Position numbers and translations under genes: made by a program. The notes beneath the pieces are model-generated. The model was not told where the DNA came from and did no database searches. It saw only the letters and a program-made list of their open reading frames with translations. DNA of 64,000 bases from Chloroflexota bacterium (lineage in GTDB: Bacteria; Chloroflexota; Anaerolineae; Anaerolineales; UBA11579), in assembly GCA_013112575.1 (NCBI GenBank), contig JABFGG010000003.1, positions 324,997-388,996 on the forward strand, read 5' to 3'. This document shows, in pieces, positions 25,373 to 41,699 of the stretch (its first letter is position 1; every line of letters begins with the position of its first letter).

Positions 25373-25957
25373 CTAACGATCTAAAGCTGCGGAAACCTGG
25401 GAAGCCAGGTCAAGGATCGGCACGTACATGACGCCGCCATTTTCCGGAGCGCCGTAATCGCGGATCCAGGCGATATGACCTGTGCTATCTACAAGCACAA
25501 AAGTATGCCCGGGTTCACCTGTGCCCACGGCCCATTGAAGCACATCATAGCTTTCGGATACTTCTTGTGTGCTGTCGGTTAATAGGGGTACCCCGAAGAT
25601 GCCATACTCATCAGCCCCTTGAGAGAGTTCCTGCTGACTATCAAATGCAATGCTGACTACATCGACGCCAAGTGCCTGGAATTCTGAGTCGTTTTGCAGA
25701 TCAACGATCTGCTCCATGCAAGGCGGTCAACCCATTGCCATATGGAAATAAAGTAATACGGGCTTCTGCCGGTTTGTGTAGTCTGTCAAGGAAACACTCT
25801 GCCCGTTGGCGTTGGTCAAGGTGAAGTCTGGAGCTTGATCCCCAATTGCCAGTCCGCTTGTATCCGATCCGCAAGCAGCTAAAGCAAGGCTAAGCAACAC
25901 TACTAAGCTGACAAAAGCTAGTTTTTGCATGCTCTGTTGATCAGCATATCTCTTCAT
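25373..25957 (-). CDS. Selenocysteine-containing AhpC/TSA (thioredoxin-fold) lipoprotein, UxxC
   Basis: ORFs 25727-25957 and 25373-25717 are in frame across TGA (25727-25729): LLYFHMAMG-U-PPC-MEQ; lipobox LAAC; GDQAPDFTL; SECIS-like hairpin at 25696-25712. Confidence 0.88.
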
Positions 25958-27048: not shown

Positions 27049-27083
27049 AAAAGAGCTCCTCGTCAGAGGAGCTCTTTATTTTT
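27049..27083. terminator. Bidirectional intrinsic terminator
   Basis: aaaagagctcctc-gtca-gaggagctcttt between convergent genes. Confidence 0.8.
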
Positions 27084-27114: not shown

Positions 27115-28887
27115 CTACTCAGCAACATATTCAGCTGTGGCATAACCGGCATCGGCCCAACCACTGAAGCCACCTTTGAGGCTACGTACGTCTGTGTAAC
27201 CGTAGGCCCACATAATGGCTGCTGCGATGGTGGAGCGGTGTCCGCTGCCGCAATAGACAACGATGGTAGCATCCTTGTCGGCAGGCCATTCGTCGATCAT
27301 GTCAATGAAAGACTCAAGCGGAATGTGTTGCCATTCGCCTTCTGTGGCCACGATGCCTTTATCTTCCAGTTCTTCGAGGCGACGGCCATCGATCAGGATC
27401 AGATCCGGGTTTTCAACCAGTTCGGTGTTGAGGGCGTCGGCGGTGACAATGCCATATGGTTCCGGCATTACTTCAAGAGCCTGGGCCATGATCTCAACAT
27501 AGCGGGGGTCAACTTCGGCTGCGTTGAGCATTTCGGCTTCCGGCTCAATGCCTGCAACAACGGGATAACCAGCATCTACCCAACCACCATAGCTGCCGCC
27601 CTTGAGGCCGCGCACATCTTCCCAACCAGCGCCTTCCAGCAGGGTCAGGGCGATGGTGCAGCGCCAACCGCTACCGCAATAGGTCACGATGGGAGTGTCG
27701 AAGCTGGGCAAATAAGCCAGGTTGTCGGCCAGTTCGGGCAAGGGGATCAACACGGAACCTTCTATGTGGCCGCTGTCTTCCAACTCGGAGGCATTGCGCA
27801 CGTCCAACAGGAAGGGCGGTTCCTCGATCAACATAGTGTTGAGGGCGTCCAGGCTCATGGTGTTGTAGCCTTCCATGTCAGCAATGAAAGTGCTGAAGGC
27901 CGTATCCAGGTCATAAGCGCCACCAATGACGGGATAGCCATCTGCTACCCAGCCACCAAAGCCACCCTTGAGGCTGGAAACGTCGGTGTAGCCGTAGGCC
28001 CACAAAATGCTCATGGCGATAGTGGAACGGTGTCCACCTGCACAGTAAACGGCAATGGGGGCATCCAGGTCGGCGGGCCACTCGTCCTTCATGTCAATGA
28101 AGGTTTCCAGGGGGATGTGTGTCCAGTTAGCAGCTTCAATCGTGCCGTTGGCTTCCAGTTCTTCTGGGCGGCGGGCATCGATCACGATCAGGTCAGCGTT
28201 TTCTGCAATGGCGGAAGTGAGACCTTCGGCAGTCAGGACGCCGTAGTTCTCGGGCATTGTGGTGGAAAGAGCTTCATCGATGATGCTGACGAAAGCCTCG
28301 TTGGGGGAAGCACCGTTGAGCATTTCGGCTTCCGGCTCTGCGCCTTCAACGACGCCATAGCCAGCATCCACCCAACCACCGTAGCTGCCGCCCTTTAAGC
28401 CTTTGACATCTTCCCAGCCCAAGCCTTCCAGCATGGTCAGGGCGATGGTGCAGCGCCAGCCGCTACCGCAATAGCTGACGATGGGGGTATCGAAGCTGGG
28501 CAGATAGGCCAGATTGTCGGCCAGTTCGGGGAGGGGGATCAGCACGGAGCCTTCAATGTGACCGTTGGCTTCAACTTCTGAAGCATTGCGCACGTCCAAC
28601 AGGAAGGGCGGGCTTTCTGCCAATTGGGTGTTGAGGGCTTCCAGACCGATGGTATTGTAGGCTTCCATATCGGCCAGGAAAGTGCTGAAGGCTGCGTCCA
28701 TGTCTTCTTCAGCAAACTCGACCATGGGCTCTTCAACAACCGGTTCTTCGACGACCGGTTCTTCAACAACAGGTTCTTCAACGACTGGTTCTTCGACAAC
28801 CGGTTCGGCCACCGGGGTCCCGCAGGCAACAAGCAGCAGGCTCAGGAGGGCCAAGATGGTTATCAGTGTGAGGAAACGATTCTTCAT
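27115..28887 (-). CDS. Four-domain rhodanese (sulfurtransferase) lipoprotein
   Basis: Lipobox LVAC, EEPVV linker, four active-site loops CGSGWR, CAGGHR, CGSGWR, CGSGHR, each with LKGG..GW; internal 2x duplication. Confidence 0.92.
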   Translation of the reverse strand: MKNRFLTLITILALLSLLLVACGTPVAEPVVEEPVVEEPVVEEPVVEEPVVEEPMVEFAEEDMDAAFSTFLADMEAYNTIGLEALNTQLAESPPFLLDVRNASEVEANGHIEGSVLIPLPELADNLAYLPSFDTPIVSYCGSGWRCTIALTMLEGLGWEDVKGLKGGSYGGWVDAGYGVVEGAEPEAEMLNGASPNEAFVSIIDEALSTTMPENYGVLTAEGLTSAIAENADLIVIDARRPEELEANGTIEAANWTHIPLETFIDMKDEWPADLDAPIAVYCAGGHRSTIAMSILWAYGYTDVSSLKGGFGGWVADGYPVIGGAYDLDTAFSTFIADMEGYNTMSLDALNTMLIEEPPFLLDVRNASELEDSGHIEGSVLIPLPELADNLAYLPSFDTPIVTYCGSGWRCTIALTLLEGAGWEDVRGLKGGSYGGWVDAGYPVVAGIEPEAEMLNAAEVDPRYVEIMAQALEVMPEPYGIVTADALNTELVENPDLILIDGRRLEELEDKGIVATEGEWQHIPLESFIDMIDEWPADKDATIVVYCGSGHRSTIAAAIMWAYGYTDVRSLKGGFSGWADAGYATAEYVAE

Positions 28888-28961: not shown

Positions 28962-30416
28962 TTATGGAATAAGTGGTGGGATACTTTCGATATATACATC
29001 CATGTTGGCTGCAAATTCTGCCAGATCGATCTTGTCCTGGGTGAGGAAAATATCGGCGTTGCCGTGGCAAGAATTGCAAGTCTGGTTTTGCGGGGTGATC
29101 AACTGGATATTGTGTGGTGTTGCGTACTTCCAGGTCGGGGATGCGTCAAAATCGGTTAGTAGACCCGACTCGTAGAAGCCATAACTTTCGGGGGAAATCG
29201 GTACGTGTCGTACCGGAACGAAACTATAGGGGCGATCAAAGGTCGGATTGGGATTGCGACCGATAAAGAAGGTCAGGTAATCACCTTCCGTCCTGAAAAT
29301 GGGATTGCCACTTTCTTCGCTTATTGAGACATGGCAGCCATCACAACTGGTATAAGCTACCGAGTGACACACTTGGCAGGATAGTTCTGTGCCGTGTTGG
29401 GCATGCATCTGGATACCGTCAGTGCCGGTGGTCACCGGGGCATGACAGGTCTCACAGCGGGGTTGCTGCAAACCATCGTAGCGATGATCGGCTGGAGCGA
29501 ACTCGGCTGCTTCTGGTCCGGTGTGGCATTCCTGGCAATCAGCGGGTGCCCCATGCATTTCATGACCGCTGTGGCAATCTGTGCAGGTCATGCGTCCCTG
29601 ACGGAAGTGAACGTCGGCCTGGAAGTCTTCATGTTTCCCGAGATATTCGTTGCCTACGCGGCTGCCGTGGCAGGCCGTGCAGTTACGCGTCATTGAGGGA
29701 GTCTCATTAAAGACGTGGCCCTCGATAAAGCCACCGCCAACAGAAGCGGGTTGGCTTACGTGGCAGTCGCCGCAGGATGTGTGACAACTACTGCAATGGT
29801 TGCCAAACATTTCCTGAACGGCGGGGTGTTCAAAATCTGCACCACGCGCTTCAATGGCGGTCTCATAACCTTTAAGGGTCACATGCAGACTGTTGCCGAA
29901 GGTCTCCACCACGTTTGGATGGCAGCTCTGGCATGTTTCGCCATTCTCGCTGGGGCGGGCCACCATTTCCGTGTGCGCGGTATCTTTGTCGGCAGATTGT
30001 TGACCACCATGGCATTCACTGCAGGACAATTGGCCATGCACTGTAATGTCGAATTTTTCTGAGTCAACCAGGACTTTTTCCCAAGGCTCCAACGGAGCCA
30101 CTTCGCCCCCTCAACCGGCGCCTTCATTTTCGGAGTGGAGATCTACCTCAGGCTCGGCTGTATCGATAAGCATTTGCTTGTCGGTGTGACATACAATGCA
30201 TTCGTCGGTGCTTTGCACCTCGCCTACAGGGTCATCTGTGCTAGTTTCCTCGTCCGAAACAGGCTCGTCAACTGCAGCATGAATAGTGGATGTTGCCTGG
30301 GGCTCAATTTCTTCAGTGACTGCATCCCCCGAACCAGGCTGACAAGCAGCAAGCAGGAAAATGCCCGCCAGCAATATCAATACGATGATGGTGTAACGAT
30401 GATTGTTTCCGTGCAT
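28962..30416 (-). CDS. Putative selenocysteine-containing dodecaheme cytochrome c lipoprotein (484 aa, U102)
   Basis: ORFs 30111-30416 and 28962-30101 are in frame across TGA (30111-30113): SENEGAG-U-GGEVAPLEPWEK; 1+11 CxxCH; only the 5' part has a signal/lipobox (LAAC); SECIS-like hairpin at 30085-30099. Confidence 0.8.
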
Positions 30417-30447: not shown

Positions 30448-30630
30448 ATGTGAATGAAGGTACAAATTCGTGATAAATTTCACTTTCATTATAAACATTA
30501 GCTATGTAAAATCAAGCTCTTCAATAGGTTTTAGCTATAGGTTTTGGTTTTGCGTACCTATAAGTAAAAATTATCACAAACTATTAGCTGCCTATTGAAA
30601 GGAACGGTTAGTTTGTTATAATATTCACAA
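30448..30630. promoter_or_regulatory. Divergent control region with Rex-like and LysR-like boxes
   Basis: TTGTTATAATATTCACAA (30613-30630), TCGTGATAAATTTCACTT (30468-30485); ATA-N9-TAT at 30491, 30524 and 30560. Confidence 0.6.
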
Positions 30631-30649: not shown

Positions 30650-31171
30650 GTGTTTATATGTTTAGTGAGAGTGGTGGGGATGAAAATGCCAATTTGGCTG
30701 ATTGCTAAGGAGCCACCTGTGTTTATTTGTAAGTTTAACCATCCTTCCATCAAAGGCATCTTGATTTGCCTCGGCCTGTTGCTTATCCTGATCTTGTCTG
30801 GCTGCAGCTCCATAGGCGCTTCAGGTGTGCAAGAGGGAGGAACGATCACAGGGCGTGTCTGGCTCGATGAAAATGCAGATGCAGAATGTGATGATTGTGA
30901 GTGTGAGTTTTATCTGGAAGATATCCCCATCCGGTTATATGAAGCACCGTGTGGTGGTCTGATCGTCAAAACCGTGATGACTGATGCAGAAGGCATTTTT
31001 TCATTCCCTGATCTGGAACCTGGTTCCTACTGTGTGATGCCCAACGTCAAATTGATCTGTGAAGGTTATCAGGCCACAACCCCCATTACACAAACAGCAG
31101 AACTTAATGCGGGAGAAACCATAGAACTGGATTGGTTCGGCTTCGACCATCACTTTGATGTGAATGAATAA
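30650..31171 (+). CDS. Small lipoprotein with SdrD-B/Cna-like beta-sandwich domain (start uncertain)
   Basis: LSGC lipobox; ITGRVWLDENAD, TDAEGIFSFPDLEPGSYCV; several Cys. Confidence 0.7.
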   Translation: MFICLVRVVGMKMPIWLIAKEPPVFICKFNHPSIKGILICLGLLLILILSGCSSIGASGVQEGGTITGRVWLDENADAECDDCECEFYLEDIPIRLYEAPCGGLIVKTVMTDAEGIFSFPDLEPGSYCVMPNVKLICEGYQATTPITQTAELNAGETIELDWFGFDHHFDVNE

Positions 31172-31183
31172 AAGGGAGTAGCT

Positions 31184-32143
31184 ATGTTAGATGCACACCA
31201 ATTGAATGTTTTTCTTGTAGCGGCTGAAACCCTGAACTTCACGAAAACGGCCAAGCGCCTGCACATGACCCAGCCAAGTGTCAGTCAGCATATACAGGCA
31301 CTAGAGAAACATTTCGGTACGCCCCTATTTGCGCGCAACGGACGGCACCTGGATTTGACCGATGCCGGTCAAACCCTGGTCCCGCAAGCACGTGAAATGG
31401 TGAGAGCATCGATACGAATAGAAGAAACGATGGAATCACTCAAGGGTGAAGTTTATGGACACCTCATGGTGGGTTGCAGCACGACCCCCGGAAAATATGT
31501 CCTGCCACATCTCCTTGCCCGTTTTCATGAGAATTACCCCGAAGTGCGCGTCACATGTAATGTGACCAGCCAGGACAACGCAATTCAGATGTTATGCGAT
31601 GGCAATGTCCATATTGCTTTGACCAGCACCTCCCATGATTTTTGTAAAGGGGCGGAGTTCCGAAAATTCTTATGCGACTCACTCGTGCTGATCGCGCCTT
31701 TGAATCACCCCTGGGCCGAGCGCGGCGTAATAGAACCGCATGAATTGTACGAAGAAAAATACATTATGAGGGAAGAAGAATCGGGCACATTACAGGCTGT
31801 GGCGCAGGGTTTACGTGAAGGCAACATTGATTTCCACAGCTTCAAAACTTTTCTCACTCTGGGGAATTCGGAGGCGATTGCGCTCTCGGTACAGGAGGGC
31901 CTGGGTGTTGGCTTTGTGTCTAAGATGGTTGTCGACAAACTCTGTGAGAACCGGGTCGGTATTGTAGATATCGACGGCTTCAATCTTTGCCGTGATATTT
32001 ACATTGCACGGCAACCCAGCCTACCGGCTTCTGCTGCACTGACCGCTTTCTGGGAATTCATCAGTACTTTTGATTATCCTTATGAAATGTCTCAAAACAG
32101 TATTTTTGCCACCGACCGTATCCCTATCGCTCCACCGGTATAG
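31184..32143 (+). CDS. LysR-family regulator (CysL-like)
   Basis: NFTKTAKRLHMTQPSVSQHIQALE, GCSTTPGKYVLP, REEESGT. Confidence 0.93.
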   Translation: MLDAHQLNVFLVAAETLNFTKTAKRLHMTQPSVSQHIQALEKHFGTPLFARNGRHLDLTDAGQTLVPQAREMVRASIRIEETMESLKGEVYGHLMVGCSTTPGKYVLPHLLARFHENYPEVRVTCNVTSQDNAIQMLCDGNVHIALTSTSHDFCKGAEFRKFLCDSLVLIAPLNHPWAERGVIEPHELYEEKYIMREEESGTLQAVAQGLREGNIDFHSFKTFLTLGNSEAIALSVQEGLGVGFVSKMVVDKLCENRVGIVDIDGFNLCRDIYIARQPSLPASAALTAFWEFISTFDYPYEMSQNSIFATDRIPIAPPV

Positions 32144-32418
32144 AAAATGGCAGTATTTTGCAATCTGGAAAAAGTTCATGATCCAAGAAAACGGGAGAAA
32201 AATACTCCACAATAAGCAATCATTTGAGAGACATATAACGATTTAATCGAATGAAGCTGAAAATAAGTCTTAATTTGACAAATAAGGTCTTATTGTCCTC
32301 CTAAAAAGGGGACATCTGTCACTACGGTGAAGTACACGGTACGGCTACGATTCAATAGGAAAGACTTATCTTTTGGCGACTATAAACATTTCAATTGACA
32401 AAGGAAATAGAGGCACCA

Positions 32419-33435
32419 ATGACAAAGAGCAGACGTATTAAAATCGCCATCATAGCCGGCATTTTCAGCGGTTTATTCGCCATGCTGCTTACCAACGGGT
32501 TCGCACTGGCCAGCCCGGTTTCCCAGGATGAAGATCCCCCTGATGACTTTCTAACTTCAGAACAATGCGCTGCATGCCATCTGGACGTCACCAGTCATTG
32601 GGAAACCAGCCCCCATGCCAATGCTTATGCTGATCCTGTGTTCCAGGAGCGTTGGACGGGGCTTGGTGAGCCAGAGGAATGTTTAGCTTGCCACACTACA
32701 GATTATCGTGCCAGTACAGGTGAATATGCTGCTGAAGGTGTTGACTGCAGTGCCTGTCATGGGGATGTTCCGAGCGACCATCCTGCCTCATTTGCCTCGG
32801 TAGTAGCAGATACGGATTTCTGCGGAAGCTGTCATACCACCACACTCAGTGAATGGCGTAGAACCGGCCATGCTTTGGGTGGGGTTGGCTGTATCGACTG
32901 CCACGATCCCCACAATCAGCAGCCTCTTTTTGAAGACCCTGATGATCTATGTATCAATTGTCATCAAGACTCAATGGAAGACTATCTTGAGGACCTGCAT
33001 ATACAAAAGGGTATAGGTTGTGTGGATTGCCATGCTTTGGTCATCCCTCCTGAAGAAGAGCCGCAAGACGGTATCGTACCTACGGGGCATGGTTTTAACA
33101 TTACCCCGGCTACCTGTGTGGCTTGCCATACGGACGCCCTGCACGCCGGTTTCTCATTGCCCGGATACACACATCCGAGCCTGGAAGAAGTTGATGCTGA
33201 AGCTCAACCTGGGTTGCTGACCGAGGCCACCGAAGCCGAACATGTTGTTGCTGAAGGACAGCTTTCTGAGCAACAGCGTATTCAGGCGCTGGAAGCCGCG
33301 GCTGCCAGCCGTAATCTTTCTGTTCTTTTCCAGGGCGGCATCATTGGTTTGGTATTAGGCAGCTCAACGGCCTGGTTGATTTTGAGTAACCTGCGTCGTC
33401 GCGAGCAACAGGACGAAAATGGAGCCCAAGAATGA
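32419..33435 (+). CDS. Membrane-anchored octaheme cytochrome c
   Basis: Signal peptide, 8 CxxCH motifs, C-terminal TM helix. Confidence 0.9.
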   Translation: MTKSRRIKIAIIAGIFSGLFAMLLTNGFALASPVSQDEDPPDDFLTSEQCAACHLDVTSHWETSPHANAYADPVFQERWTGLGEPEECLACHTTDYRASTGEYAAEGVDCSACHGDVPSDHPASFASVVADTDFCGSCHTTTLSEWRRTGHALGGVGCIDCHDPHNQQPLFEDPDDLCINCHQDSMEDYLEDLHIQKGIGCVDCHALVIPPEEEPQDGIVPTGHGFNITPATCVACHTDALHAGFSLPGYTHPSLEEVDAEAQPGLLTEATEAEHVVAEGQLSEQQRIQALEAAAASRNLSVLFQGGIIGLVLGSSTAWLILSNLRRREQQDENGAQE

Positions 33436-34259
33436 CAGATAATGCCAAAGAGTCTAAACAGACCGAACCGCTCCTCTCCCGACGGGATTTATTAAAGGTC
33501 GCTGGTGCGACCCTGGGAACGGTAGCAATTACAGAACTGGTCATCACGGGGCCATTATCGCCAGCGGAGATCCAGGGTATTGAGCGTGAATCGCATGGCG
33601 CCATTTCTGGTGAAAACGAATGGCATATGGTCATTGACCTCGAGAAGTGTATCGGCTGCCAGTATTGTATGTGGGCTTGCCAGGGGGTCAATGATGTGCC
33701 CACTGACGAGATGCGCTGGAATGTCGGTTTCCCTGAAGTCACTGATAACGGCACCGAATTTTTCATGACGCGGCCCTGTTTACATTGTTCAGATGCTCCT
33801 TGTGTCAAGGTCTGCCCGGTGGGCGCTACCTGGACACGTGAAGATGGCCTTGTGTCGATGGACTATGACCGCTGCATTGGCTGCCGGTACTGCCAGGTGG
33901 CCTGCCCTTATGATGCCCGCCGCTTTAATTGGGAAGTTTCCGAACAGGAAAATCCCTATCAACCTACCTGGGGTACAGCCGAGGTAGAGAGGCGCACACG
34001 CGGCGTGGTCGAAAAATGCACCTTTTGTGAACACCGCATCGATCGTGGCGTAGAGCAGGGACTTGTACCTGGTGAAGATGTCCAGGCGACACCTGCCTGT
34101 GTAAATGTATGCCCGGTTGGCGCACGCGTATTTGGTGACATTAAGAACCCTGAATCCAAACTTTCTCAATATCTGGACAACAACGACACTTTCCGTTTAC
34201 GCGAAGACTTTGGTACCGAACCGAAAGTGCATTACGTACGCCCTGAGAGTGAGGTCTAA
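33432..34259 (+). CDS. Tat-exported 4Fe-4S protein (NrfC/PsrB-like)
   Basis: SRRDLLK Tat motif; CIGCQYC..C, CLHCSDAPC..C, CIGCRYC..C, KCTFC..C..C. Confidence 0.93.
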   Translation: MTDNAKESKQTEPLLSRRDLLKVAGATLGTVAITELVITGPLSPAEIQGIERESHGAISGENEWHMVIDLEKCIGCQYCMWACQGVNDVPTDEMRWNVGFPEVTDNGTEFFMTRPCLHCSDAPCVKVCPVGATWTREDGLVSMDYDRCIGCRYCQVACPYDARRFNWEVSEQENPYQPTWGTAEVERRTRGVVEKCTFCEHRIDRGVEQGLVPGEDVQATPACVNVCPVGARVFGDIKNPESKLSQYLDNNDTFRLREDFGTEPKVHYVRPESEV

Positions 34260-34260
34260 G

Positions 34261-35496
34261 ATGGCAACATTGGAACTTCCAAGAAGACAAAATCTGACGC
34301 CTTTCACGATCTGGATGGCCGGATTGGTTCTGCTGCTGGCTGTTGGAGCCATTGGTATGGCCATTACCCTGATTTACGGTTTGCAGGTTACTGGCCTGCG
34401 TGATCAGGTCCCCTGGGGCCTGTGGATTACACACGACCTGTCTGCAATTGCCCTGGGTGCCGGTGCGTTTACCTTTTCGGCGGTGGTGTACCTGTTCAGG
34501 ATAAAGCGTTTTGAACCTATGGCGCGTGTAGCAGTATTTGTCGGCTTTTTGGGCTACTCTTCGGCCATGCTTGTACTGGCCATGGACATTGGCCGTCCGG
34601 ACAGGTTCTGGCACCCACTTATTTATTGGAATGTTCATTCAGTTCTCTGGGAGATCACCTGGTGTGTGATCCTCTATTCCGGAGTGTTGATCGCTGAAGT
34701 ATTTCCAATTGTGACTGAACTGAAGTTTTTTGACCGTTACCCTAAGATCCGCGAATTTGGTCATTCCCTGCACCGTTTCACCTGGGTCTTTGCCATATTT
34801 GGCCTGGCGCTCTCCTTATTGCACCAGTCCTCTCTAGGTGCTACCTATGGTGTGCTCTCCGGTAGAGCCATATGGTTCAAGCCTTCTCTTCCAGTGATGT
34901 TCATCATTTCAGCGGTTGCGGGCGGCATGTCCCTGACCTTGCTGGCCACCCTGGTTGTAGGTCTGGTACGTGGCGTGGAATTGATCCCGCGTGACCTGAT
35001 CCGCTCTATCTCCCGCGTGATCGCATTTGCTTTATTGGGTTACTTGTATCTAAAGCTTTGGGACTGGGCAGCAACTTCCTATTACAGTAGCTCCCCAGGA
35101 GCCGCAGATGCACTTGCCCGTTTGCAGGCAACGACTCCTTATACGACAACCTTCTGGTGGTTGGAGATAGTGCTGGGGGGCCTGGTTCCGGCTGTCATCC
35201 TTCTCTGGTCGCAATTGCGTCGTAATCCTGCCTACCTGGTAAGTGCACTTTCTCTCATCATCATGGGAGTGGTCGTGAACCGCTGGAATGTAACCCTATC
35301 CGGTCTGGTCGTGCCACCGCAGTGGTCTCCTGGAGTTACCGGTGGTACTTTGGCAGTTTCCTATTTCCCCTCAGCCGTTGAGGTCATGGTCTCACTTGGG
35401 GTGCTGGCTTACATGCTAACGGCATTTACCCTGGGCGCTCGTTATCTGCCCTTGTTCAAGAAAATAGGGGAGCAAGAAGCAGCCCATGCTGATTAG
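34261..35496 (+). CDS. NrfD/PsrC-family quinol-interacting membrane subunit
   Basis: VPWGLWI, DIGRPDRFW, SVLWE, LHQSSLG; ATG at 34261 after GAGG. Confidence 0.92.
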   Translation: MATLELPRRQNLTPFTIWMAGLVLLLAVGAIGMAITLIYGLQVTGLRDQVPWGLWITHDLSAIALGAGAFTFSAVVYLFRIKRFEPMARVAVFVGFLGYSSAMLVLAMDIGRPDRFWHPLIYWNVHSVLWEITWCVILYSGVLIAEVFPIVTELKFFDRYPKIREFGHSLHRFTWVFAIFGLALSLLHQSSLGATYGVLSGRAIWFKPSLPVMFIISAVAGGMSLTLLATLVVGLVRGVELIPRDLIRSISRVIAFALLGYLYLKLWDWAATSYYSSSPGAADALARLQATTPYTTTFWWLEIVLGGLVPAVILLWSQLRRNPAYLVSALSLIIMGVVVNRWNVTLSGLVVPPQWSPGVTGGTLAVSYFPSAVEVMVSLGVLAYMLTAFTLGARYLPLFKKIGEQEAAHAD

Positions 35497-35861: not shown

Positions 35862-37991
35862 CTAGGGTCGCACTAAGCCTGCGGTGCTACCGCCAATATC
35901 CTGGATGGAGTCGAACAGGACTTGGGCAACGTATTCCGCATTGTGGACGTACGCTCCGGGGTCCTTCTGGGAGTATTGGTAGTTGTAGGCAGCTTGCAAC
36001 AAGCGAGGCGTCCAGACATTGTACTGGTTGCCGTAGTTCGCTTCGCTGGGGCCAGCCGACTCGCCGTCACCGTCCGTATCAATGAAGAAATACGGGTAAG
36101 CGTGGGAGTCGTAGATGATGGGCGTGCCGGCCTCGGCAGCATATTCTTGAATCGCTGCATAGAGGATCTCAGCCAGGCCATCGATCTCGCCTGCTACACC
36201 TTCTTCTGTGTCACCATCACCATCGTAGTCCAAGGTGGTCTCAAAGCGGATGTTCTTGAAGTCTGCCGCAGTGGTCACCTCAGTATGGCATGCGGTGCAT
36301 AGAGTGGCATCCACTTCGAGAGCGTGGGCGTTGTGGCAGTCGGAGCATTCAGTAGCTCTTTCGACGTGCTCGAACAAGCCAGTGTAGTTCTTACCGTCGT
36401 ACTGGAACGCGCCTTTGGCAACGTCACCGAAGCGGGTTGCACCGGCTGCGAAGTAGTGGATGTTGATGAAGCGGATTTGGTCCGTGGGGGTATCTGCGGG
36501 TAATCCTTCAACTGCGCCATTGACCGAGTTCGTGGATGAACGGCCCTGGTGGCAGGTCATACACAGGGAACTCTCACTTTCAACCGTAGCTCCACTGGGG
36601 AAAGTCACTTCAGTGACTTCGTAGAGGGCGTAGGTATCCAGATCTGTGTGACAAGTCGCACAGGTGAAACCGTTGCCGGGTTCCTGAGAGATCTCGACGC
36701 CTTCCGTGAGGAACAAGCCGAGACCCTCGGTGCTGTGGCAGCGGCTGCAGGAGCCGGGCACTGCACCGTCTTCGTCCCAGTGACGGAAAGCTTCTTCCGA
36801 ACCGGCGAAGTGGCCATGGTCGATGCGGTTAGCGGTGGAGATGTCGATACCTGTGTTCAGGTCTTCGATCGAGTCGTACAGCAATTGAATGATGTACTTG
36901 CCGCCGTGGGCATAACCACCCGGATCCTTAAGGGAGACCTGGTAGTTATAGGCTGCTTTGAGCAGACGTGGTGTCCACGAAGCATATTTGTTGGGGAAGA
37001 TGGCTTCGCCATCATCTACTTCGCCGTTTCCGTCATCAATGAAGAAGTACGGATAAGCGTGCGAATCGTAAACAACGGGTGTGCCAGGTACTTCTGCTGC
37101 ATAGGCCTGAATGGCCTGGTAAAGCAATTCCTGCAAGCCAGCGATCTCGAAGGCAATGCCTTCTTGCATGTCGCCGTCGCCGTCGTAGTCAACCAGGGAA
37201 CCTGCCATACGCACGTCCCTGAGGTCTTCTACGCTTTCCACACCGGTGTGGCAGCTTGCACAATCCGCCACTTTAACTTCCAGGGTGTGGGAGTCGTGGC
37301 AGTCGATACAAGTTTGGGAGCCTTCGACGTGGTCAAAGCGCGCATCGTATGTATTCCCGGCGTATTCGTAACCGCCTTTGGTCAGCGTACCGTACTTGGT
37401 GGCTGTGGCTGCGTAGTAGTGGATGTTGATGAAGCCAAGTTCTTCATTGACTTCGTCTTCACCCTCAATGCCCAGTTCAGCGATGGTCTCATCAACTGCT
37501 ACTGATGAGGCGCGCCCCTGGTGGCATTGCATACAACGAGCTTCAGCACCCAATCCGGAGATCTCGACGCCTGATGGCATGACAACGCTGTCCATTGAAG
37601 CTGCAGCTTCGTTGTGGCAGGTGTCGCAGGTGATAACTTCGCCTACAGGCACTTCTGCATCAACGACGCCGAACTCACTACCATCGGCACCCAGGAAATC
37701 TTTGTAACCACTGGCAGCGTGGCATTTGGCACAAAATACGGGGATCACGGCCGGATCGTCTTCATCCCAATGTACGAAGGCTTCGGCAGAAGCATCTGCA
37801 TGCGGTGATGCCTGCCATTCTTCTAGAAATGGGACAGTGACTTCAGGGGCCATGTCTTCTTCCGGCATCGCTTCCACAATTTCAGTGACAACGACGGTTT
37901 CCTTGACTACCTCAGGGGTAGTACAAGCGGAAATGACCAATACGAGCGCGACGAGCGCTAGTAGCAGGAAGAGAGGGATTGATTTTTTCAT
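35862..37991 (-). CDS. Decaheme cytochrome c lipoprotein built from two tandem pentaheme repeats
   Basis: Lipobox ISAC; 10 CxxCH; duplicated SAEAF.HWDED, INIHY, DYDGDGD, YDSHAYPYFF, WTPRLL.AAYNY, DPG.Y.H. Confidence 0.9.
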   Translation of the reverse strand: MKKSIPLFLLLALVALVLVISACTTPEVVKETVVVTEIVEAMPEEDMAPEVTVPFLEEWQASPHADASAEAFVHWDEDDPAVIPVFCAKCHAASGYKDFLGADGSEFGVVDAEVPVGEVITCDTCHNEAAASMDSVVMPSGVEISGLGAEARCMQCHQGRASSVAVDETIAELGIEGEDEVNEELGFINIHYYAATATKYGTLTKGGYEYAGNTYDARFDHVEGSQTCIDCHDSHTLEVKVADCASCHTGVESVEDLRDVRMAGSLVDYDGDGDMQEGIAFEIAGLQELLYQAIQAYAAEVPGTPVVYDSHAYPYFFIDDGNGEVDDGEAIFPNKYASWTPRLLKAAYNYQVSLKDPGGYAHGGKYIIQLLYDSIEDLNTGIDISTANRIDHGHFAGSEEAFRHWDEDGAVPGSCSRCHSTEGLGLFLTEGVEISQEPGNGFTCATCHTDLDTYALYEVTEVTFPSGATVESESSLCMTCHQGRSSTNSVNGAVEGLPADTPTDQIRFINIHYFAAGATRFGDVAKGAFQYDGKNYTGLFEHVERATECSDCHNAHALEVDATLCTACHTEVTTAADFKNIRFETTLDYDGDGDTEEGVAGEIDGLAEILYAAIQEYAAEAGTPIIYDSHAYPYFFIDTDGDGESAGPSEANYGNQYNVWTPRLLQAAYNYQYSQKDPGAYVHNAEYVAQVLFDSIQDIGGSTAGLVRP

Positions 37992-38530: not shown

Positions 38531-39049
38531 ATGGCAACTACACTGGATGCCCAACCTATAGCTAATCCCAACCGTTCCAAGTTCATTTTGGGTGGATTGT
38601 TGCTTTTGGTTGCGGTGGTTTATTTGATTGTTTCATCTACGATCGCTGGCGCCCAATATTTCTTTACTGTTGATGAGTTGATGACCCGCACAGATGATGT
38701 TGTTGGGTCGCCTTTGCGTGTCTCTGGTGCAGTTATCGGCGAGACCATTGATTACGATCCGGATACACTGACCCTAAAGTTCACTGTGGCCCACATGCCC
38801 GGCGACCAGGCATTATTGGATGAAGAAGGTGGCCTGGCCGAAGCACTTTATACCGCCGTGAATGACCCTGACCGCACACGTATGGAAGTGGTCTACGTTG
38901 GTGTTAAACCCGACCTCCTGCGGCACGAAGCCCAGGCGATTATGGCCGGGACGATGGGTGAAGACGGTGTTTTCTACGCCGATGAACTTTTACTCAAATG
39001 CCCTACCAGGTACGAAGAAGCCGCACCTGACCAGGTCAGCGACAACTAA
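38531..39049 (+). CDS. ccmE: Heme chaperone CcmE, Cys-type
   Basis: N-terminal TM, LRVSGAV, KPDLL, LLLKCPTRY (CxxxY). Confidence 0.9.
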   Translation: MATTLDAQPIANPNRSKFILGGLLLLVAVVYLIVSSTIAGAQYFFTVDELMTRTDDVVGSPLRVSGAVIGETIDYDPDTLTLKFTVAHMPGDQALLDEEGGLAEALYTAVNDPDRTRMEVVYVGVKPDLLRHEAQAIMAGTMGEDGVFYADELLLKCPTRYEEAAPDQVSDN

Positions 39050-39109
39050 TTACTGTTTATTTCAGGATCAGGAAATCACTTTTCTGATCCTGAGTTTGGA
39101 GAGAGGTTT

Positions 39110-41209
39110 ATGTTAGCTAGTCTTGGTTATGGCGCCCTTGTAATTACTTTTTTGGTCTCATTATATGGTGTGGGCGCAGCTATCTATGGTGTTACACAGA
39201 ATAAAGCGAGTTGGGTGGATAGTTCCCGCAACGCCATGTTGCTCACTTTCCCCTTATTGACCATTTCCGCACTAAGCATCACCCTCCTGCTCATACAAAT
39301 GGATTTTCAGGTTGAGTACGTGGCCAGTGTCACCAGCCGCAGTATGCCTATGTACCTGCGCATTACAGCCCTTTGGGGTGGGCAGGAAGGCTCGCTCGTT
39401 TTTTGGGCCTGGTTAATGGCTGCATTTGCCTCAGCAGTAACTTTGCGCGATTGGAAACGCGATCGCGAATTCCTTCCCTGGGTTGTAGTGGTCTCGCTGA
39501 GTACGCTGGCTTTCTTTTTGATCTTGATCATCTTCTTCGAGAATCCCTTTGTGCGTTTGTGGCAAAGTTCCTCCGGCGAGATTATTTCAGCAGTCTGGCA
39601 ACCAGCCGGTACCCTACCATTTATACCTGCCGATGGGCGCGGCCTCAATCCTTTGTTACGCCATCCAGGCATGATCATCCATCCCCCCTTGCTTTATCTG
39701 GGTTTCGTTTCCTTCGTAGTTCCCTTTGCTTTTGCCATTGCTGCTCTGATCACAGGGCGCACTGACGATCGTTGGATCCGCGTAACCCGTCGCTGGACTT
39801 TGTGGGCATGGTTGTTCCTTTCCCTAGGCCTGGTATTGGGTGGTCGCTGGGCCTACGATGTTTTGGGTTGGGGTGGTTACTGGGGTTGGGATCCGGTTGA
39901 GATCGCGGCTTTCATGCCCTGGCTAACAGGCACAGCTTTCCTGCATTCTGTGATGATCCAGGAAAAGCGCGGCATGTTCAAACATTGGAATATGTTCCTT
40001 ATTATCCTGACGTATGACCTGGTCATCTTTGGTACTTTCCTGACGCGTTCCGGTGTGCTCTCCTCTGTACACTCCTTTGCCCAAAGTGCCATAGGGCCAT
40101 TGTTCTTTGTTTTCATTGTATTGACCTTGACGATTTCCCTGTGGCTGCTTGTCCGTCGCTGGGCTGAATTACGTGGTGAGGAACAGATCAATTCCTTCTT
40201 CTCACGTGAAGCCTTCTTCTTATTCAATAACCTCATCTTCATGGCCATCCTGGTGATCTGTTTCTGGGGTGTGGTTTTCCCCCTCGTCAGCGAGGCCTCC
40301 GGTCTTATCGGCCAGGCAATTCCTGCGCTTTCGAATGTCTTCACCGGGCAAAAGATCACGGTTGGCCCCATCTTTTACGAACGTGCGACAGGCCCGTTAT
40401 GGGCGGGGCTACTGGTTTTGATGGGTATTGCACCGCTTTCAGCCTGGGGAGCTTCTACTGCTAAAACACTGGGCCGCAAGTTATGGCTGCCCACGATCAT
40501 CTCATTCATTCCTGCTGTAGTGATCTTTTTTCTGGGTGTGAGCGGTGCTGCGTTGCTGGCCTTTTGGCTGGTTTCGTTTGTAACGGCGATCACCTTGTAT
40601 GAGTTTTGGCAGGGAGTGGGGGCACGTGTGCGTACCAAAGGAGAAAATGTGTTCGCCGCCTTCTGGGCCTTGGTTGGGCGTGACCGGCGCCGCTATGGTG
40701 GCTATACCATTCACCTTGGTATTGTGCTTATGGCAGTAGGTATCATTGGCATCGAGATTTTCCAGACTGAGACCCAAGGTACTGTCCCGATCGGTGGCGA
40801 GATCGCCCTGGGAGATTATTTAGTGCGCTACGACTCGCTGGCTGATTTCAATACGCCCGATGGCCGCAACGTGGCGCGTGCATCCATCAGTGTCTTTAGA
40901 GATGGTGAATACCTGACCGAGTTGAACCCCCGTCGTGACTACTATTTCGAATCGCAACAAACCATGACGATCCCTGGCGTGCGCAGCTCTATCGAGGATG
41001 ACTTTTATGTCCTGCTAGTGGACTGGCAGCCGATCTCGACTCAGAGTGCAACCTTCAAGATCTACCACAATCCATTGGTGAACTGGTTGTGGTTCGGCAG
41101 TGTTATCTTGATCGTAGGGACTTTTGTAGCAGCCTGGCCGGAAAAAGACCGAGCCGCGATACGCGAGAACAAACACTTACGAGTTCAGGCACCAGCCAGC
41201 GCGGACTAA
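39110..41209 (+). CDS. ccmF: Heme lyase CcmF
   Basis: WGGQEGS, HPPLLYLG, WGGYWGWDPVE, SVHSFA. Confidence 0.96.
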   Translation: MLASLGYGALVITFLVSLYGVGAAIYGVTQNKASWVDSSRNAMLLTFPLLTISALSITLLLIQMDFQVEYVASVTSRSMPMYLRITALWGGQEGSLVFWAWLMAAFASAVTLRDWKRDREFLPWVVVVSLSTLAFFLILIIFFENPFVRLWQSSSGEIISAVWQPAGTLPFIPADGRGLNPLLRHPGMIIHPPLLYLGFVSFVVPFAFAIAALITGRTDDRWIRVTRRWTLWAWLFLSLGLVLGGRWAYDVLGWGGYWGWDPVEIAAFMPWLTGTAFLHSVMIQEKRGMFKHWNMFLIILTYDLVIFGTFLTRSGVLSSVHSFAQSAIGPLFFVFIVLTLTISLWLLVRRWAELRGEEQINSFFSREAFFLFNNLIFMAILVICFWGVVFPLVSEASGLIGQAIPALSNVFTGQKITVGPIFYERATGPLWAGLLVLMGIAPLSAWGASTAKTLGRKLWLPTIISFIPAVVIFFLGVSGAALLAFWLVSFVTAITLYEFWQGVGARVRTKGENVFAAFWALVGRDRRRYGGYTIHLGIVLMAVGIIGIEIFQTETQGTVPIGGEIALGDYLVRYDSLADFNTPDGRNVARASISVFRDGEYLTELNPRRDYYFESQQTMTIPGVRSSIEDDFYVLLVDWQPISTQSATFKIYHNPLVNWLWFGSVILIVGTFVAAWPEKDRAAIRENKHLRVQAPASAD

Positions 41210-41210
41210 C

Positions 41211-41699
41211 ATGAAATCCAGACTCTTTCTTTTTGTTCTGCTGATCGCCTTGTTGCTGGCTGTGCCGGTTAGCGCGCAGGATAATCCCCCGCCGGATGCT
41301 CCTACGGATGATGAAATCAATGCGGTAGCCAAGAACATGTATTGTCCGGTATGCGAGAATGTGCCCCTCGACGTTTGTCCCACACTGGCTTGCGAACAGT
41401 GGCGTGCCCAGATCCGCGAACTTTTAGCGGAAGGCGCTACTGAGCAGGAGGTCTACGACTACTTTGTGCTGCATTACGGTGATCGCGTGCTGGCAGAACC
41501 ACCTCGCACTGGGCTCAATTGGTTGATCTATATCGTGCCGCCAGTAGTTATTCTGGCTGGTATTGTGGCTCTGTATTTTGCCTTGCGCAACTGGCGCAAG
41601 CCGGTTGCTGCAGCTCCGCAGTCTCAAGCTGAAAAATCGGGTGAGCCTGAAGATGAGTACATGGCTCGCCTGGAAGAAGAACTTGCCAAACGCAACTAA
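41211..41699 (+). CDS. ccmH: CcmH/CcmL thiol-redox subunit
   Basis: MYCPVCEN, YGDRVLAEPP. Confidence 0.9.
   Translation: MKSRLFLFVLLIALLLAVPVSAQDNPPPDAPTDDEINAVAKNMYCPVCENVPLDVCPTLACEQWRAQIRELLAEGATEQEVYDYFVLHYGDRVLAEPPRTGLNWLIYIVPPVVILAGIVALYFALRNWRKPVAAAPQSQAEKSGEPEDEYMARLEEELAKRN

Follow-up and report, generated by a model that had tools for sequence, protein, structure and literature searches.

A lipoprotein-type multiheme cytochrome c with a predicted in-frame selenocysteine and a rhodanese partner: an uncatalogued selenoprotein family from Chloroflexota and Desulfobacterota

Heme II is the catalytic heme of octaheme tetrathionate reductase (OTR), a sulfur-oxyanion reductase of Shewanella oneidensis (PDB 1SP3; family TIGR04315), and SoxAX acts together with a sulfur-carrying protein. 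The accessible text of PMC3769277 describes an unusual Lys56 ligand at heme II of OTR. A precedent for selenocysteine (Sec) among multiheme cytochromes is MccSep (ExtKL; GSU2937-2936 of Geobacter sulfurreducens; NF040886; PDB 9WT8/9WT9), which the accessible portion of PMC13510729 presents as a polysulfide reductase that contains Sec and five hemes, one of them His/Cys-ligated, and that also reduces selenite, and whose Sec is stated there not to be the heme ligand. Within its accessible text, a 2026 catalogue of 119 prokaryotic selenoprotein families (PMC13188914) gives as heme proteins only ExtKL, GSU2204 and a form of OTR annotated with Sec in GenBank. The cytochrome family described here was found neither in that part of the catalogue nor in NCBIfam, where no family was matched near its cut-off by the cytochrome or its homologues. 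The families of Haft and Tolstoy 2025 (PMC12013261) were compared by way of the PMC13188914 table and NCBIfam, the word "cytochrome" is absent from the main texts of deep-Sep (PMC12013277) and BSepDB (PMC13326102), and a full-text search, with subscription papers mostly outside its scope, found no published description. The family is thus an uncatalogued one, of a kind, the multiheme selenoenzyme, that is already known through MccSep.

The gene lies in a 64,000-nucleotide stretch of an Anaerolineales genome (hereafter the window), the features of which are collected in Table 1. Read on the reverse strand from an ATG at 30416, the frame has a TGA at residue 102 as its sole internal stop, in the context ENEGAG-U-GGEVAPLEPWEK, just as an earlier note on this DNA had placed it (EGAG-U-GGEV); gene callers split the frame into ORFs of 101 and 379 aa. 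Eleven of the 12 CxxCH motifs follow the TGA. The same note had assigned a lipoprotein signal and one CxxCH to the upstream ORF and had seen no export signal in the downstream 11-heme ORF, and both statements are borne out: the lipobox and C73 are present upstream, the 379-aa ORF from the GTG at 30101 has no export signal, and among 106 homologues with complete frames a hydrophobic segment stands 5' of the TGA in 102 and within the first 40 aa after it in none. The heme 1 motif likewise precedes the TGA at 74 of 76 metagenome junctions. A sequencing error at the junction is unlikely, because contigs of four runs from four studies, each of which may be the source sample, agree there with no differing base or gap. 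The two ORFs almost certainly form one frame with UGA decoded as Sec, and the product is predicted to be an exported, membrane- or lipid-anchored 12-heme protein.

Table 1. Features of the window around the cytochrome gene, with the basis of each assignment.
Feature	Position	Strand	Basis or remark
12-CxxCH lipoprotein cytochrome c gene, 484 aa, predicted Sec102	28962..30416	-	frame and homologue junctions
Lipoprotein signal peptide, lipobox LAAC with Cys25, then acidic low-complexity tether	30342..30416	-	sequence
Heme 1 motif C73-H77, sole CxxCH 5' of the UGA	30186..30200	-	sequence
TGA codon, predicted Sec102, within G-x-G-U-G-G	30111..30113	-	sequence, homologue junctions
Putative SECIS hairpin GGCTCC-GTT-GGAGCC	30085..30099	-	loop 17 nt after UGA; conservation
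Residues 148-351: hemes 3, 4, 5, 6, 7, 9, 10 colinear with OTR hemes I-VII	29364..29975	-	profile alignment
His207 and heme 4 motif C208-H212, predicted catalytic site, OTR heme II equivalent	29781..29798	-	inference
590-aa lipoprotein, four rhodanese domains	27115..28887	-	starts 74 nt after cytochrome stop
12-pair stem-loop and T tract just past rhodanese gene	27050..27077	+	consensus match only
Sigma-70-like promoter match (10/12), 5' of cytochrome gene	30488..30515	-	consensus match
LysR regulator	31184..32143	+	best match NF040786 (selenium metabolism-associated LysR), 233.7 bits, cut-off 250
Octaheme cytochrome, QrcC/DsrO-like 4Fe-4S protein and NrfD-family membrane subunit	32395..35496	+	divergent
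ccmE, ccmF, ccmH, cytochrome c maturation genes	38531..41699	+	sequence

It had also been proposed that a conserved TGA or Cys at this column would support Sec, and that TAA, TAG or out-of-frame junctions would speak against it. At 30 genome loci, all titled Chloroflexota, the column holds TGA in 29 and TGG in one (L004); nine of 301 genomes of the phylum gave a match, and 10 of 10 matches contain exactly one TGA. Among the best 80 of 588 metagenome loci, fetched with a profile of 12 distant members and 41-75% identical to a distant member, TGA is the only junction stop in 76, one of the others lying at a contig edge and three being impossible to anchor. No TAA or TAG stands at the Sec column in any assessable junction of these 30 and 80 loci, and no homologous locus showed an out-of-frame junction. 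The 119 nearest database proteins comprise 102 that begin just after the Sec column and 17 of full length. In a manual sorting of 48 full-length proteins, which excluded 7 rows as fragmentary or unalignable, 14 had Cys at the column, four had Cys adjacent to it, giving 18 intact homologues with Cys at or next to the position, and 30 had another residue. Met (four) or His (two) stands in place of Sec in some intact homologues, and most other replacements are large hydrophobic residues. At least 30 full-length homologues have neither Sec nor Cys and retain nearly all hemes; the scaffold therefore persists where the selenol is gone. In a quick tree, non-Sec forms emerge several times within Sec clades, often on longer branches, and Sec with its hairpin is retained over at least two phyla. 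Some of the Trp that database proteins show at the column may have been created by gene callers, that of L004 alone being confirmed by DNA (TGG). The idea that L004 comes from a genome without Sec was rejected, as selA is present there; this query found no second copy of the cytochrome gene in that genome.

The statement in the earlier note that the Sec lies outside any CxxC or CxxCH motif holds for this protein but not for the whole family, as a few homologues have CxxU, CU, CxxC or CC there. These extra-Cys variants (CKGU, CU, CxxC, CC) were seen at loci L040:1603, L055, L062 and L064, the hairpin apex of L062 and L064 differing as well, and in proteins P0155, P0160, P0166, P0169 and P0175. 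At L021, L029, L030 and L073 the TGA and hairpin are intact and the downstream frame is short (178-267 aa or less), which reads as frameshifts or assembly errors. Other homologues carry 6-9 additional hemes (L097:3992-6877, P0129, P0133, P0136, P0185), with up to 18-19 CxxCH after the UGA and, in some, a C-terminal membrane anchor.

The hairpin that the note had described 17 nt after the UGA is present as drawn. Its 6-bp stem, GTT loop, 17-nt distance and energy of -9.1 kcal/mol satisfy all listed criteria of the bacterial SECIS model in the accessible text of PMC13188914 (loop of 3-9 nt with G first, stem of 4-16 bp, 16-37 nt from the UGA, MFE <= -7.5). By chance, among this genome's stops with long frames on either side, a comparable hairpin follows 17 of 3044 TGA against 28 of 4989 TAA/TAG stops, or about 0.6%. 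Over 109 distinct junctions the codon choice within the stem is all but fixed (Pro CCG 99/99, Glu GAG 79/79, Ala GCT 62/63, Leu TTG 100/104), the Gly, Pro and Val codons flanking it vary freely, and 104 junctions have a GTT loop. Each of the six stem positions is paired in 102-109 of the 109 junctions, and the stem arms exchange between clades: in 17 junctions they are swapped (GGAGCC-GTT-GGCTCC), the protein then reading EPLAP rather than APLEP. Covariation, which the note had put forward as a check, is evident in a 37-row alignment in which 99.1% of cells pair, a value matched by 0 of 500 shuffles and compared with 34-56% in slid controls, the rows being related and hence not independent events. 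Because synonymous codons are frozen while the arms are swapped between clades, the hairpin is, on this comparative evidence, a real SECIS-type element. It overlaps the GTG (30101-30099) that gene callers take as a start. Codon +4 is GTG in 77 of the 109 junctions, TTG in nine and CTG in eight, and codons +1 to +6 contain neither ATG nor GTG in 32, a pattern that marks position +4 as no conserved start and the GTG at 30101 as a false one; its use as an independent start, which the note had named as a finding that would count against a selenoprotein, is not borne out here.

The genome encodes selA, selB and selD above their cut-offs, its selD having an in-frame TGA of its own, and a tRNA-Sec gene on contig C23. 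All nine genomes that carry the cytochrome gene have selA, which is uninformative because 231 of 301 genomes do (a tally that includes the unpublished G227, G038, G145, G173 and G272, none of them among the nine). Taken together, the conserved TGA, the SECIS element, the non-conserved GTG and the export signal confined to the upstream part make it very probable that the UGA is read through as Sec, a step that SelB would direct. No RNA runs containing this stretch are listed; the DNA runs that contain it include bioreactor metagenomes. The distant members come, by source names, from Desulfobacterales, Syntrophobacterales and Desulfovibrio ferrophilus. The protein of the last (A0A2Z6AZ70, DFE_1749) begins at the same truncation point, and its TGA is presumed from its clade. 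It is listed, at 0-5 spectra per sample, in three proteome tables of the supplement to PMC8322314 and is unmentioned in the main text of that paper; these spectra show translation of the downstream part, not read-through. DFE_1748 and DFE_1750 are absent from those tables, which says nothing for or against read-through.

The core of the family has 11 hemes, to which this lineage has added heme 8 (C294-H298). Among solved structures, OTR 1SP3 scores best in the profile search (E 1.3e-12), with two colinear stretches, hemes 3-4 with OTR I-II and hemes 5, 6, 7, 9 and 10 with OTR III-VII; a global HH alignment gives a different register, so the assignment of heme 4 is not secure. The sole other profile match in the genome is a canonical OTR-like gene (52.5 bits), compared with a maximum of 35.1 bits in 200 CxxCH-keeping shuffles; this octaheme gene (L125:937-2391, G000 C1) has GKKN..NNFC and lies beside a 918-aa 7-heme frame. 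TIGR04315 does not match the cytochrome itself and matches six of 12 homologues (best E 1.6e-8; 20 bits against a cut-off of 375). A phmmer search against PDB sequences gave 0 matches at E <= 0.01. Foldseek of the AlphaFold model (residues 66-484, mean pLDDT 94, pTM 0.90; Gly-rich loop 85-94) against the PDB gave nothing at E <= 0.001, and the matches listed did not include 1SP3. No conserved Lys in the aligned stretch corresponds to Lys56. By sequence the core is probably a distant relative of OTR, a kinship that Foldseek does not confirm.

Three residues vary with the Sec. H207, beside heme 4, is retained by 98 of 100 Sec forms, 4 of 18 Cys forms and 12 of 30 others (16 of 48 non-Sec forms together); R253 by 100/100, 14/18 and 19/29; and H404 by 99/100, 9/16 and 24/30, the Sec forms having been gathered by similarity and so not being independent. 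As these residues relax upon Sec loss while the hemes stay, we infer that a catalytic role is more probable for them than a structural one. In a mean-field coupling analysis (340 rows, effective depth about 224), the Sec loop is linked through G104-G251, A100-Y258, U102-Y184 and L109-H207, and R253 is linked to H404; the loop couplings are modest (z 4.6-6.1), can reflect joint loss rather than contact, and only G104-G251 and G104-L109 are among the top 40. The Sec loop probably lies at an active-site pocket near heme 4.

The most constant neighbour is the rhodanese lipoprotein, each of whose four domains has an active-site-type Cys (140, 282, 404, 546) in a CxxGxR loop. At 32 of the 39 genome loci a rhodanese gene is adjacent; of the other seven, four lie at contig ends and three have enough flank and no rhodanese. 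At least 45 of 76 metagenome loci have one (Pfam confirmed eight of eight tested, plus one missed by tblastn), none being found at loci such as L044 and L064; loci such as these two and L028 have none of the recurrent partners. Fusions of rhodanese and cytochrome occur in P0122 and P0176, with a further one, P0181, recognised by inspection, and the one match in a search for longer proteins was the P0122 fusion. At L059 (548-1600, -, and 5097-6154, +), a homologue has split YeeE/YedE sulfur transporter genes and two single rhodaneses on its flanks.

In the window, the stem-loop past the rhodanese gene is likely a terminator between convergent genes. The promoter match upstream of the cytochrome is weak, with five such sites found against 3.8 expected; an ATAG-N7-CTAT inverted repeat (30524-30538), possibly a LysR-type box, lies 5' of it. 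A LysR homologue occurs at 22 of the 39 genome loci. Putative electron-supply modules recur. The octaheme, QrcC-like and NrfD-family trio, 2 kb away here, is directly upstream and divergent at 8 of the 39 and is a candidate quinol-oxidising electron source; among the 76 metagenome loci a 4Fe-4S gene is directly 3' in 10, and L118 has a cytochrome b. A 709-aa lipoprotein-like cytochrome with 10 CxxCH (35862-37991, -) and a small lipoprotein that is SdrD-B-like and has several Cys (30650-31171, +) also lie in the window, and neither has a homologue at the 39 cytochrome loci.

Given the rhodanese linkage and fusions, the profile match to OTR and the precedent of MccSep, we lean, with some reserve, towards a membrane-tethered extracytoplasmic reductase of sulfane sulfur (polysulfide or persulfide) that acts with the rhodanese. 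The cytochrome would be exported and its hemes attached by the Ccm system. The rhodanese Cys may bind sulfane sulfur of polysulfide as persulfide and present it to the cytochrome, where an ordered Gly-rich loop would hold the Sec102 selenolate near heme 4, in a pocket of Y184, H207, G251-Y258, R253 and H404. It is reasonable to postulate that the selenolate attacks the S-S bond of the rhodanese-borne persulfide, and that electrons from menaquinol, by way of the octaheme/QrcC/NrfD module or of a fused or adjacent membrane cytochrome, travel along the other hemes so that sulfide is released. As the cytochrome has no free Cys besides that of the lipobox, the resolving step would take place on a heme or on the partner, unlike in MccSep.

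In a variant of this explanation, which retains read-through and which we consider unlikely, Sec102 would itself be the distal axial ligand of one heme (His/Sec), by turns binding the iron and attacking the substrate; such a heme would correspond, with Se in place of S, to the His/Cys-ligated catalytic hemes of TsdA, SoxAX and MccSep. Consistent with such a role are the lack of free Cys and a count of near-invariant spare His (9-10) that leaves one or two of the 11 core hemes without one; ten are well conserved (127, 148, 178, 234, 270, 288, 338, 341, 404, 435). The Met and His that replace Sec in some intact homologues fit this role too, and the large hydrophobic substitutes are as expected against a heme face. 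However, with H207 and H404 counted, Sec forms have 11 spare His for 11 core hemes and all could be bis-His, so the count allows Sec either as ligand or beside the iron; the extra-Cys variants resemble redox dithiol-type motifs, and the Sec of MccSep is, in the accessible text of PMC13510729, no ligand.

The substrate or the direction may also differ, with selenite, tellurite, tetrathionate or thiosulfate reduced, or sulfide or sulfane sulfur oxidised (e.g. in disproportionation). Direction cannot be told from sequence, and kinship to OTR, ExtM matches in 10 of 12 members that are weak and far below the cut-off, the selenium-metabolism LysR nearby and the selenite reduction ascribed to MccSep in the accessible part of PMC13510729 all suit such a role, which we nonetheless hold to be unlikely, as rhodanese, the constant partner, carries sulfane sulfur and the Lys ligand of OTR is not conserved. 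Decidedly improbable is a non-catalytic electron wire, for instance in extracellular electron transfer, in which Sec would tune a heme or protect against oxidation: hemes do persist in homologues with neither Sec nor Cys, the window is a multiheme island (with 8- and 10-heme neighbours) and bioreactors are among the DNA sources, but against such a wire speak the retention of Sec and SECIS across at least two phyla, the active-site-like residues that vary with Sec, the repeated rise of non-Sec forms from Sec clades, often on longer branches, and the linkage and fusion to rhodanese. Last, it is very improbable that the UGA is a true stop with the GTG at 30101 starting a separate 11-heme protein, or that the locus is a pseudogene, since a Shine-Dalgarno-like GAGGGGG before that GTG, the frequent GTG at +4 and the split database entries are outweighed by the absence of TAA/TAG, the many junctions with no ATG or GTG, the missing downstream export signals, the intact Cys homologues and the covarying SECIS. 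Some re-initiation or termination under Se limitation may occur.

The sulfane-sulfur reductase would not be the only selenoprotein of this genome. The note had likened the hairpin apex, C-GUU-G, to that of a hairpin at 25696, and the same apex is indeed found in GCAGATC-GTT-GATCTGC (25712-25696), its loop 21 nt after the TGA (25729-25727) of a lipoprotein redoxin/AhpC-TSA protein with U-P-P-C (25373-25957, -). This is probably a second selenoprotein, of known type (UxxC redoxin); it lies outside the conserved unit, as no homologue occurs at the 39 cytochrome loci. Two further candidates with SECIS-like hairpins were seen in the genome (G000), LLVPA-U-PLC (C2:170645, -), which by motif we take to be GrdB/PrdB-like, and FGSFT-U-PYC (C2:347069, +), presumably deiodinase-like by motif; a C-GNN-G apex is common to these two and the redoxin.

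The family adds to the heme selenoproteins, and many of its database entries are truncated at the Sec codon. Its presence suggests sulfur respiration among Anaerolineae and the Desulfobacterota of sediments and, if the His/Sec arrangement were true, an unrecognised route of it in Anaerolineae, Desulfobacterota and others. That it is a widespread, uncatalogued, molybdenum-free sulfur respiratory enzyme with a natural His/Sec catalytic heme that takes sulfane sulfur directly from a rhodanese is, as a whole, doubtful. With no partner Cys and a probable OTR-like scaffold, the question of a natural selenolate-heme centre is directly testable, and the homologue of the cultured D. ferrophilus, present in a public proteome, allows read-through to be checked in existing raw data.

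Set beside the known systems, the GSU2204-family CXXCH (seleno)protein NF041027 is likewise a heme-motif selenoprotein and differs in being described as MtrB/PioB-like (both from the accessible text of PMC13188914); it gave no match at E <= 0.01. TsdA and SoxAX have, as proposed for the cytochrome, a c-type heme at which a chalcogen serves as ligand or nucleophile and sulfur compounds as substrates (accessible text of PMC13510729), and differ in thiosulfate oxidation and the use of Cys; neither was seen as a match in the profile search against solved structures. OTR shares seven hemes colinear in sequence and the spacer motifs H..P..CxxCH..SH, DVH..CxxCH..H.G and H..H..CQxCH, but has eight hemes and Lys56, whereas the cytochrome has 11-12, three to four of them extra, with no Lys56 equivalent. 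MccSep is also an exported multiheme c-type cytochrome whose gene annotators split at an in-frame UGA followed by a SECIS. Its Sec, too, lies in a loop flanked by Gly and not in a CxxCH, it has homologues of the Cys type, and S-S cleavage is proposed for it. NF040886 gave no match to the cytochrome and the profile reached only E 0.02-0.03 against 9WT8/9WT9, and by sequence MccSep is an analogue, not a homologue. It has five hemes of its own, a C-terminal Sec325, a His/Cys239 catalytic heme and an Ig-like domain, in contrast to the 11-12 hemes, N-terminal Sec102, lack of free Cys and lipid anchor of the cytochrome, which would thus represent, after MccSep, a second and unrelated combination of Sec with multiple hemes, on a probable OTR-like scaffold and with no partner Cys.
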